Source: a virus (taxonomy: Duplodnaviria; Heunggongvirae; Uroviricota; Caudoviricetes). From it: 8,398 nt of DNA. The DNA is taken from IMG/VR virus record IMGVR_UViG_2703719367_000013, one strand, 5' to 3'. Shown here in pieces: positions 6,001 through 8,398 of this stretch (positions within the stretch are counted from its first letter, which is position 1; every line of letters begins with the position of its first letter). A program made the position numbers.

Positions 6001-8398
6001 AATCAGGTAAAGGCACTTACCCGAATCAGGTAAACACAAAAGACAAACTAACAAAAGACAATATAAAACCTTATTCGTCCGAGAATTCTGGCGAATCCTC
6101 TGACCTGCCAGAAAACGACCTTCCTGTGGTGAAAGCGGATGCTGCGATTCAGAGCGGCAGCAAGTGGGGGAAAACAACTTCTGGTCCGGTAACGTGCTGA
6201 GCCCGGCCAAACTCCGCGATAAGTGGACCCAACTCGAAATCAACCGTAACAAGCAACAGGCAGGCGTGACAGCCAGCAAACCAAAACTCGACCTGACAAA
6301 CACAGACTGGATTTACGGGGTGGATCTATGAAAAACATCGCCGCACAGATGGTTAACTTTGACCGTGAGCAGATGCGTCGGATCGCCAACAACATGCCGG
6401 AACAGTACGACGAAAAGCCGCAGGTACAGCAGGTAGCGCAGATCATCAACGGTGTGTTCAGCCAGTTACTGGCAACTTTCCCGGCGAGCCTGGCTAACCG
6501 TGACCAGAACGAAGTGAACGAAATCCGCCGCCAGTGGGTTCTGGCTTTCCGGGAAAACGGGATCACCTCGATGGAACAGGTTAACGCAGGAATGCGCGTA
6601 GCCCGTCGGCAGAATCGACCATTTCTTCCATCACCCGGGCAGTTTGTTGCATGGTGCCGGGAAGAAGCATCCGTTATCGCCGGACTGCCAAACGTCAGCG
6701 AGCTGGTTGATATGGTTTACGAGTATTGCCGGAAGCGAGGCCTGTATCCGGATGCAGAGTCTTATCCGTGGAAATCGAACGCGCACTACTGGCTGGTTAC
6801 CAACCTGTACCAGAACATGCGGGCCAATGCGCTGACTGACGCGGAATTACGACGCAAGGCTGCCGATGAACTGACCTGTATGACAGCGCGAATTAACCGT
6901 GGTGAGGCGATACCTGAACCAGTAAAACAACTTCCTGTCATGGGCGGCAGACCTCTAAATCGTGTTCAGGCGCTGGCGAAGATCGCAGAAATTAAAGCTA
7001 AGTTCGGACTGAAAGGAGCAAGTGTATGACGGGCAAAGAGGCAATTATTCATTACCTGGGGACGCATAATAGCTTCTGTGCGCCGGACGTTGCCGCGCTA
7101 ACAGGCGCAACAGTAACCAGCATAAATCAGGCCGCAGCTAAAATGGCACGGGCAGGTCTTCTGGTTATCGAAGGTAAGGTCTGGCGAACGGTGTATTACC
7201 GGTTTGCTACCAAGGAAGAACGGGAAGGAAAGGTGAGCACGAATATGATTTTTAAGGAGTGTCGCCAGAGTGCCGCGATGAAACGGGTATTGTTGGTATA
7301 CAGAACTTAGCATCGAAGGCCTATTGTTTTCGACAGGAGGCCATCGAAATGACACTATGGTACCGTCTTTACCCACCGCCTTCTGCTAAGTTTAGGAATA
7401 CAAGATGTTGCTGCCGTTAAAAAATAGTCGTAATTTCTATTAGAATTTGGGCAATATAACCAGCACATAGATAAGGGAGTCGTTTTATGCACGAACTATT
7501 TGTGCTGGTTTTGAGCACCTGTGCTAGCCTCAGCAATATGTCAGGTTGTTCAGTGGAAGTAGTGAATGTCAACACCACAAAAGAGCCGGTAAACGTCTTT
7601 TATAGCAGGAAAGACTGCGAAGAAAGCATGAAAAACATTATGCTAAATCATGCTCTATACCATGAAGTATCAGGCAGAGAGCCATATATGGCAAAGTGCG
7701 AACAAGTATTTGTCTCAAAAAGTTTAATGAAATAATTGGCCAAAAACGACATATAACAAACTCTTATAGGAGCTTAACGTGGAAGATTACTTAGTTTTTG
7801 GTTTAGGTTATGAAGGCGATATAAAGAACGATGAAGCAGGGCTTGATAAGATAAGCGTGGTAACGAAATCGGTAGTGCGTTCTACCAATTCCAATGAACC
7901 AGTGGTTTACCAAGTGACTGAGTTTAAAGAATTTAATGTTGTGAGACATCAAGCGTTTGATAGTGAATACTACAACATAGCATTCGATGTCTTACCATCC
8001 CGCGTCCGTATTGATGCTGCAATCCGTAAATATCACCCCAAGAAATCCTCCTCAGCTTAGTAAGCTTTGATTTTCCATTATCAACCAGCAATAATAATGT
8101 CCTCGGAGCCTGAACAACTCCGGTGACTTCTGCGCTAAACGGGGACGTTTATGCGCACATACAATCCAAACTCTCTTCTCCCTTCACTGATGCAGAAATG
8201 CACCTGTGGTTCTTTGCATCCAACGTTTGACCTCTGCGGAGGTGAAGCGTGAACCTCCCACAAGACGGTATCAAATTGCATCGCGGTAACTTCACTGCTA
8301 TCGGCCAGCAGATCCAGCCTTATCTGGAGAACGGAAAATGCTTTCGCATGGTGCTTAAACCGTGGCGTGAGAAACGCAGTCTTTCCCAGAATGCACTC

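Follow-up and report, generated by a model that had tools for sequence, protein, structure and literature searches.

What fills the space between ren and the NinB-type gene of this prophage, and what could its products do? The window, by which we mean the whole 8,398-nucleotide stretch of DNA analyzed here, has ren ending with a stop codon at 7308-7310 and the second of two small intervening genes ending with one at 8058-8060, so that the limits 7311-8060 are exact. An earlier note had described this block as a lower-GC moron of about 750 bp with two small same-strand ORFs, each with its own SD sequence, one with a GTG start and the other with four cysteines, and had placed lambda ninB almost directly after ren. 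These descriptive points hold. The lambda gap from ren to the start of ninB measures only 73 bp, the coordinates and SDs of both ORFs have been located and the GC content of 7311-8060 is 39.9%, versus 50-54% for its neighbors (53.8% in P, 50.2% in ren and 50.7% at the start of ybcN). The GC3 values are 0.43 for the first ORF (ORF82) and 0.37 for the second (ORF93), compared with 0.54-0.59 for ren and P. The features in and around the block are:

7026..7310, plus strand: ren, encoding a Ren-like exclusion protein (phrog_142, E 6.8e-41); left flank
7305..7410, no strand: non-coding linker, a mosaic piece of its own without a match in phage records
7411..7486, plus strand: ORF82 leader, near-invariant in 12 distinct sequences at a coding dS of 0.5-0.9
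7487-7735, plus strand: ORF82, 82 aa, ATG start; SD AAGGGAG at 7473-7479, 7 nt upstream
7779-8060, plus strand: ORF93, 93 aa, GTG start; SD AGGAG at 7768-7772, 6 nt upstream
8061..8150, plus strand: conserved right boundary element with a promoter-like site and an inverted repeat
8151..8252, plus strand: orf33-type ORF of 33 codons (RefSeq WP_072141214.1 in locus L001; orf33 of phage 82)
8249..8398, plus strand: 5' part of a ybcN / phage 82 orf151-type gene; right flank, running off the window

The prophage itself looks defective in the window, in that O is truncated and a cro-like gene is frameshifted.

A variable slot and its borders

Lambdoid phages are known to be mosaic at the ren-ninB junction, which is a general recombination hot spot. 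In a megablast search, ren is 98% identical to ren of BP-4795, 933W and VT1-Sakai and the match stops at query position 301. The homology shared with other lambdoid phages of E. coli ends at about 7300. The DNA that is foreign to other E. coli phages extends from about 7301 to 8065. The flanks in phage records are 92-98% identical to those of the prophage, the segment 7301-8065 is missing from those phages and the 7311-8060 block has no DNA-level match in 50,697 phage records. The same junction holds two ORFs in 933W, four in VT1-Sakai and six genes in PhiR5_1, none of which is related to ORF82 or ORF93. The comparison across lambdoid phages that the earlier note had proposed shows that lambda lacks the cassette and that other phages carry unrelated genes at this position.

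Nineteen other E. coli genomes have a copy of the linker downstream of trkG, at 78-79% identity. Its RNA fold z-score is -2.1, and covariation support is absent. Two candidate features in this region were rejected by comparison with the trkG-downstream copy. The first is a 23-codon mini-ORF at 7350-7421, preceded by AGGAGG, for which the copy has ATA in place of ATG and a degraded SD. The second is a long hairpin in 7305-7392, two stem pairs of which are broken in the copy and not compensated.

On the other side, the right boundary element is kept in E. coli, Enterobacter and phage 82. A promoter scan matches -35 TTGATT at 8067-8072 and -10 AATAAT at 8090-8095, followed by the inverted repeat CGGAG-N9-CTCCG at 8105-8123, and the phage 82 record X92588 marks a putative -35/-10 here, together with a 'possible regulator-binding site'. 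The RNA fold z-score of the element is -3.2. The 33-codon ORF that follows overlaps the ybcN start through a GTGA junction.

The earlier note had called the downstream gene NinB-like. Its RefSeq name in locus L001 is 'DNA base-flipping protein YbcN', and the full-length YbcN-type protein from that locus scores 23.1 bits (E 7e-5) against the Pfam NinB family PF05772, just under the gathering cut-off of 23.8, with an alignment that spans profile positions 30-128 of 131. BLASTP finds no significant similarity to lambda NinB. The gene is of the YbcN/phage 82 orf151 type and would be a distant relative of ninB.

Two conserved genes that recombine separately

Both ORFs are genuine protein-coding genes, as shown by their substitution pattern. 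Compared with the Enterobacter homologues, ORF82 has a dN/dS of 0.12-0.20 and ORF93 one of 0.03-0.19, at dS values of 0.3-0.9 for both, which indicates purifying selection on each of them. Their phylogenetic range is narrow and confined to enterobacteria. One might suspect that the DNA from ren to ybcN is junk and that its two ORFs arose by chance or are decaying remnants, because GenBank records disagree on the start of ORF82 (82, 65, 60 or 57 aa, with the 65-aa form in many of them), the prophage has a defective appearance and the family is extremely small. However, dN/dS values of 0.03-0.20 at dS up to 0.9 already refute this reading. In addition, 18-19 viral contigs of IMG/VR, as well as E. 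coli, Enterobacter and Klebsiella, have ORF82 and ORF93 conserved at full length, both SDs are conserved among the homologues and ORF93 belongs to a PHROG family, which leaves the junk explanation with next to no chance of being correct. A practical outcome is that the start of ORF82 is corrected to the 82-aa form. The start codon of ORF93 is ATG in the Enterobacter homologues.

The earlier note did not recognize either sequence, and neither protein falls in a characterized family of Pfam, PHROGs, NCBIfam or PADLOC. ORF93 provides the only significant end-to-end PHROG match (phrog_16870, E 9e-64, with all 93 residues aligned to the 93 profile positions) and it also matches phrog_17438 weakly (E 1.3e-4); neither family has a functional annotation. 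ORF82 has no PHROG match. In a tblastn search of the 50,697 phage records, ORF82 had no match and ORF93 had a single distant one, at 33%, in a Klebsiella phage. The ORF82 profile was run exhaustively with HMMER against 1.84 billion representatives, which added one relative, P0017; a match of this profile to a repeat in a 3264-aa protein is probably spurious. Profile searches against PDB sequences returned nothing credible, Rfam contains no matching family and a literature search on the RefSeq accessions found no paper. AlphaFold2 models, which were built on shallow alignments of 10 and 15 sequences, predict with moderate confidence a small alpha/beta fold for ORF82 and a beta-rich fold with a C-terminal helix for ORF93, and their fold matches are generic only.

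The ORF82 leader includes the last 17 bases of a gene that lies upstream in Enterobacter phages (ending in AAVKK and a stop codon). It contains a promoter-like site, with -35 TTAAAA at 7417-7422, an 18-nt spacer and -10 TAGAAT at 7441-7446 (9/12 matches), and no variant has lost T1, A2 or T6 of the -10. The scan gave three such promoter-like sites versus 2.6 in shuffles, i.e., a number that is not above that in shuffles. A perfect 10-nt inverted repeat brackets the SD and ATG of ORF82, with its 5' arm at 7458-7467 and its 3' arm at 7501-7510, within codons 5-8. The repeat is invariant except for one C-to-T change that would retain a G-U pair; it is missing at the distant locus L014, and the RNA fold z-score at this site is only -1.0.

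The gene order varies among relatives. In IMG/VR contigs and in prophages of Enterobacter, NinB/YbcN comes directly after the cassette. In close relatives of ORF93, the gene upstream is either ORF82, as in 18 of the 19 IMG/VR contigs, or a DUF2767 gene, the arrangement of most Enterobacter contigs from NCBI. At the DUF2767-ORF93 junction the recombination joint is at the ORF93 SD, where homology begins. Downstream of the distant ORF82 relative P0017 there is an unrelated gene of 82 aa, and distant ORF93 relatives are placed between a 142-aa gene and a homologue of the pol III theta subunit. These arrangements, read from the sequences, show that ORF82 and ORF93 are separable, modular genes.

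ORF93 had been suggested as a partner of ORF82, a toxin or an immunity factor. The replacement of ORF82 by DUF2767 and the unrelated neighbor of P0017 do not support such an obligate role. A related proposal is a two-gene conflict module of the toxin-antitoxin or abortive infection type, in which ORF93 would be the toxin, ORF82 or DUF2767 a swappable antitoxin and the inverted repeat the site of autoregulation. Small, closely spaced genes on the same strand, a conserved leader and an inverted repeat around the SD and ATG would agree with this proposal, as would the alternation of ORF82 and DUF2767 upstream of ORF93. The predicted strands and C-terminal helix of ORF93 also follow the secondary-structure order of CcdB/MazF-type toxins, in which beta strands precede a C-terminal helix. 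However, neither protein matches any toxin-antitoxin, toxin, antitoxin or defence family, nor is there a match in PADLOC, Pfam or NCBIfam. ORF82 is predicted without a DNA-binding antitoxin fold, the distant relatives of both genes have other neighbors, the two genes do not always occur together (ORF93 also follows DUF2767, and P0017 precedes an unrelated gene) and the repeat is missing at L014. We regard a toxin-antitoxin pair as quite improbable.

The N-terminus of ORF82

The hydrophobic N-terminal segment of ORF82, LFVLVLSTCASL, had prompted the suggestion that the protein is exported or a lipoprotein and acts in superinfection exclusion or receptor masking. In its full form the suggestion would make ORF82 a factor like Cor, Llp or Bor, expressed in the lysogen from a promoter of its own, with ORF93 as a partner. 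Several features agree with it. After E3 there are 20 uncharged residues (mean Kyte-Doolittle value about 1.5 by hand calculation) that end in S-G-C, or S-A-C in P0017. The four cysteines, C12, C21, C44 and C71, are all invariant, and Cys44 and Cys71 might pair in a periplasmic disulfide. Other such features are the conserved, promoter-like leader and the lower GC content.

However, the segment fails a rule for lipoprotein signals. We applied a PROSITE PS51257-type rule, which calls for at least one K/R in the first seven residues, six non-charged residues and then the pattern [LIVMFWSTAG]2-[LIVMFYSTAGCQ]-[AGS]-C, in which the Cys falls at position 15-35. The n-region of ORF82, MHELFVL, has no K/R and a net charge of -1, as do the n-regions of all the homologues, including P0017. 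There is an N at -4 of Cys21 and a T at -1 of Cys12, and the pattern is unmatched in L001, L002 and L003. The full rule fails in every locus; the bare lipobox pattern is matched only by P0017, at Cys21, and another homologue, P0007, has a D at -1 of the corresponding Cys. The positive controls pass, in that the Rz1 o-spanins of L001 and L005 and another lipoprotein of L002 were detected.

Conservation points in the same direction. The first 22 residues are 50% identical to those of P0017, a relative at 38% identity, and the N-terminus is conserved at the protein level despite seven synonymous codon changes relative to L014. No other part of the protein is conserved as well, which is unlike a signal peptide. 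C12 would lie inside such a peptide, yet it does not vary even in the relative at 38% identity. In the AlphaFold2 model, residues 3-25 form a beta-hairpin (strands 3-15 and 18-25) within the sheet of the domain rather than a detached helix, and C12 would face C21.

Homology searches do not help the exclusion idea either. The ORF82 protein of the window does not match the Cor family PHROG 1119, and one of its 10 homologues (P0007) does so at a non-significant E of 0.2. An hhalign comparison with HK022 Cor gives a probability of 3.4% over 10 columns, on which homology to Cor was rejected, and no exclusion family in PHROG, Pfam or PADLOC matches ORF82 at E < 0.01. These sequence and model-based results make export of ORF82 unlikely, and the protein is probably an ordinary cytoplasmic one. 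With its uncharged run and the small residue kept before Cys21, the segment might still, at low probability, be a non-canonical signal or membrane anchor. An adsorption-blocking or masking lipoprotein is thus an explanation that we doubt.

A probable accessory cassette and its known counterparts

On balance, we favor the explanation that 7301-8065 is an accessory cassette of mosaic make-up. It would belong to the nin region (delayed-early, rightward) of a prophage that is lambdoid and of the E. coli O157:H7/O55:H7 lineage, and it would consist of three exchangeable pieces, namely the non-coding linker, ORF82 with its conserved leader, and ORF93. We predict that both products are small soluble cytoplasmic proteins and not adsorption-blocking envelope proteins; the four invariant cysteines of ORF82 probably form a structural or metal site. 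The genes would be transcribed rightward with O-P-ren-nin-Q during lytic growth, and perhaps also from a promoter in the ORF82 leader. Shared transcription is expected because the genes are on the same strand and there is no intrinsic terminator from ren to ybcN except for a weak hairpin in ORF82. Lytic-phase expression may no longer occur here because the prophage looks defective. The two genes are presumably dispensable because the nin-region genes (lambda ninB-ninI) are non-essential delayed-early genes of the pR transcript (PMC10695390, PMC8022706). Each gene, independently of the other, might have a non-essential accessory role in host takeover, anti-defence or the modulation of DNA metabolism.

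In short, the most likely identity of both products is that of small cytoplasmic, non-essential delayed-early accessory proteins. There is a slim chance that they instead form a conflict module that has not been recognized, either through exclusion by an ORF82 that is exported or lipid-anchored in a non-canonical way, or as a mix-and-match antitoxin-toxin or anti-defence pair controlled through the leader and inverted repeat. If either protein were an anti-defence or exclusion factor, its family would be new; some Stx1a-converting prophages, including the one in strain 644-PT8, carry it. As an accessory cassette, the locus adds two small hypothetical genes to a slot known for variable cargo in lambdoid and Stx phages, and its presence in E. 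coli O157:H7/O55:H7 and in Enterobacter/Klebsiella prophages documents exchange between genera in the nin region.

The term moron fits this cassette in part. A moron (Juhala et al. 2000) is reportedly an extra gene unit with its own promoter and terminator and a deviant composition that is expressed from the prophage. Variable presence is found for 7301-8065 and deviant GC content for 7311-8060. However, there is no terminator of its own downstream of ORF93, since the single match in the terminator scan is the weak hairpin at 7489-7505 within ORF82.

Cor of HK022, phi80 and N15 resembles ORF82 in size (78 versus 82 aa), in being encoded by a prophage accessory gene and in having a hydrophobic N-terminus with a Cys. 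However, the Cor signal is canonical, MKRLIICIAGALMLSGC, whereas ORF82 begins with MHE and has no K/R, and Cor sits in the late (tail) region while ORF82 is in the nin region. Small alpha/beta inhibitor proteins of phages, AcrIC8 (PDB 8g9s) among them, also count as close known systems.

Closer counterparts by position are L0091/L0092 of 933W, H0043-H0046 of VT1-Sakai and the six-gene insert of PhiR5_1, which occupy the same slot, after ren and before a NinB-type gene. They are mostly on the same strand, encode small proteins without an assigned function and vary between near-identical flanks. They have no sequence similarity to the cassette described here, which is shared with Enterobacter and Klebsiella prophages. 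The lambda nin genes share the position between the replication genes and Q, the rightward direction and, presumably, dispensability. However, nin genes typically lie close together and overlap through ATGA (PMC8022706), whereas ORF82 and ORF93 are surrounded by spacers of 176, 43 and 90 bp, have strong SDs and a conserved leader and are 10-14 points lower in GC content. The spacers and the conserved leader would fit an independently expressed moron.

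The block between ren and the ybcN-type gene

Two small genes, ORF82 and ORF93 (named for the lengths of their products), lie between ren and a YbcN-type gene.

Features of the ren-ybcN interval (window coordinates)
7310, plus strand: stop codon of ren
7305-7410, after ren: non-coding linker; other copies 78-79% identical
7487-7735, plus strand: ORF82; ATG start, Shine-Dalgarno sequence (SD) AAGGGAG 7 nt upstream
7779-8060, plus strand: ORF93; GTG start, SD AGGAG 6 nt upstream
8061-8150, right of ORF93: conserved right-edge element; promoter-like TTGATT-17-AATAAT, hairpin CGGAG-N9-CTCCG and a third hairpin over the start of orf33

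The GC content of 7311-8060 is 39.9%, as compared with 53.8% for P, 50.2% for ren and 50.7% for the start of ybcN, and the GC3 values are 0.43 (ORF82) and 0.37 (ORF93) versus 0.54-0.59 for ren and P. The coordinates, SDs and composition bear out the earlier note's description of a two-gene, lower-GC block between ren and a ninB-type gene; its comparison with lambda, where ninB starts 73 bp past ren, is also correct. In a megablast comparison with 50,697 phage records, similarity to the ren of many Stx/lambdoid phages ends at ~7300 and that to phage 82 and phages of the PhiR type picks up again at ~8066; these are the left and right mosaic joints, and none of the records covers the interval between them.

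Copies of 7300-8080 with at least 99% identity occur in 89 of the 5,426 complete E. coli genomes, and one more genome has a copy at 80-90%. All of these copies are chromosomal, and the carrier strains listed are mostly O157:H7, with some O55:H7. The corresponding prophage of strain 644-PT8 carries stx1a.

Composition of the cassette and its coding content

The cassette itself is a composite of three pieces: the linker, a leader plus ORF82, and ORF93. The only other copies of the linker are in 19 E. coli genomes, just downstream of the Rac prophage gene trkG, for example at 2501-2605 of the trkG-side locus L017. A mini-ORF in the linker (AGGAGG-ATG) is not conserved in these copies, and the 105-bp linker appears to be a mosaic boundary sequence that recurs.

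Homology to Enterobacter lambdoid prophages starts at ~7411 and takes in the final codons of the gene that lies upstream in those prophages (…AAVKK-stop), the leader and ORF82. Across 12 distinct sequences from E. coli and Enterobacter there is almost no variation at positions 7411-7550, which comprise the leader and ~60 nt of coding sequence at the start of ORF82, whereas synonymous sites deeper in the gene have diverged (dS 0.5-0.9). This pattern points to a constraint at the nucleotide level. TTAAAA-18-TAGAAT in the leader resembles a promoter, and the SD and ATG of ORF82 lie between the arms of a perfect 10-nt inverted repeat (7458-7467/7501-7510). The repeat has an RNA fold z-score of only -1.0 and one G-U-compatible change, and it is absent at the distant locus that encodes P0017, an ORF82 relative with 38% identity. 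The promoter-like site, the repeat and the near-invariant leader and coding start together suggest that ORF82 is under additional dedicated control, either transcriptional or translational. At the other end, the 8061-8150 element (RNA fold z-score -3.2) is conserved from phage 82 to the Enterobacter prophages, is annotated in the phage 82 record as a putative -35/-10 with a 'possible regulator-binding site', and delimits the variable slot on the right.

With dN/dS values versus Enterobacter homologues of 0.12-0.20 for ORF82 and 0.03-0.19 for ORF93 (dS 0.3-0.9), both are real genes; the GTG of ORF93 is replaced by an ATG at the same position in its Enterobacter homologues. Many GenBank entries give ORF82 as 65, 60 or 57 aa from internal starts, the 65-aa form beginning at Met18. 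P0017, the only distant relative, has no Met18 and is identical to ORF82 at 11 of the first 22 residues, seven of them through different synonymous codons. Because residues 1-22 are thus conserved at the protein level, the 82-aa form from the ATG at 7487 is the true product.

Export, pairing and predicted function

The earlier note had proposed that ORF82 might be an exported protein or lipoprotein involved in exclusion, and this was not borne out. A PROSITE PS51257-type rule (pattern from general knowledge), applied to all start-resolved ORFs in four prophage loci, picked up the Rz1 o-spanins and one more lipoprotein but never ORF82, with the K/R requirement on or off. The n-region of ORF82 is MHE (net charge -1, no K/R), and its candidate lipobox, N-M-S-G-C, has N at -4 and, in one homologue, D at -1. 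Conservation is highest in the N-terminal third of the protein, and Cys12, like Cys21, 44 and 71 an invariant residue, would fall within a signal peptide. An AlphaFold2 model (10 sequences, pLDDT 68.8, five models at 62-69) places residues 3-15 and 18-25 in a hairpin that is joined to strand 69-75 and packed on helices 41-62; by strand register in the predicted secondary structure, Cys12 would lie opposite Cys21. One homologue gave a weak lead (E 0.2) to Cor, the superinfection-exclusion lipoprotein of HK022, which failed in profile comparison (probability 3.4%). On the other side, 20 uncharged residues follow E3 and S-[GA]-C21 is conserved, which makes a non-canonical signal conceivable; overall, we regard export as unlikely. 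ORF82 is probably neither exported nor lipidated.

Nor did the suggestion that ORF93 is a partner, toxin or immunity factor of ORF82 hold up, as ORF93 also occurs with another gene and an ORF82 relative lies beside an unrelated one. Among 19 IMG/VR contigs with close ORF93 relatives, ORF82 is directly upstream in 18 and a DUF2767 gene in one, and a NinB/YbcN gene is directly downstream in 18. The commonest ORF93 variant in NCBI Enterobacter genomes has the DUF2767 gene upstream in almost all contigs examined, and there similarity to the window begins exactly at the ORF93 SD. In most Enterobacter prophages, for example at 7720-7956 of comparison locus L005, the position immediately before ORF93 is taken not by ORF82 but by the DUF2767 protein (79-85 aa), which has no sequence relation to ORF82. 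The next gene after that for P0017 is an unrelated one of 82 aa, and distant Klebsiella ORF93 relatives (33%) have a 142-aa gene on one side and a homologue of DNA pol III theta on the other. On this gene order, the two genes are not an obligate pair.

Neither ORF matched Pfam, NCBIfam or PADLOC, PHROGs matches were limited to families without functional annotation, and PDB sequence profile searches returned nothing credible. Genes of the nin region are non-essential, delayed-early and on the pR transcript (PMC10695390, PMC8022706). Most likely, ORF82 and ORF93 are two independent, small cytoplasmic accessory proteins, an exchangeable cargo of the nin region expressed rightward together with the early operon.

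The prophage and the ren-ninB slot

The window covers the early region of a lambdoid prophage. Its minus strand carries bet, gam, kil, a SIR2-family gene of low GC and a cI-like repressor, and its plus strand carries, in order, a YdaS/cro-like gene, YdaT, O, P, ren, ORF82, ORF93, orf33 and the YbcN-type gene. The replication initiator gene O (5481-6331) lacks ~170 bp at ~6171-6174 relative to 644-PT8; the resulting frameshift truncates its product from 339 to 239 aa, so this prophage copy is probably replication-defective. The YdaS/cro-like gene beside the repressor (~4692-4914, plus strand) is frameshifted according to RefSeq in the 99.95% identical 644-PT8 copy and has no intact ORF in the window, a further sign of a defective ('grounded') prophage.

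The SIR2-family gene (2175-3782, minus strand; 29.7% GC) lies between the repressor and kil/gam, a site occupied in lambda by rexAB/N. Its 535-aa product aligns over its full length with PDC-S25, a candidate defence system in PADLOC (E 8e-235), and also shows ThsA-like SIR2 similarity and a Pfam SIR2_2 match. This gene is probably the window's actual defence moron.

The ren-ninB junction serves generally as a site for cargo. Lambda carries nothing there, 933W two ORFs, VT1-Sakai four, and PhiR5_1 six genes, one of which is rha; none of the genes in the last three is related to ORF82 or ORF93. Describing the block as a moron in a variable slot is reasonable, and ORF82 and ORF93 are hypervariable nin-region cargo of a sort already known from lambdoid prophages.
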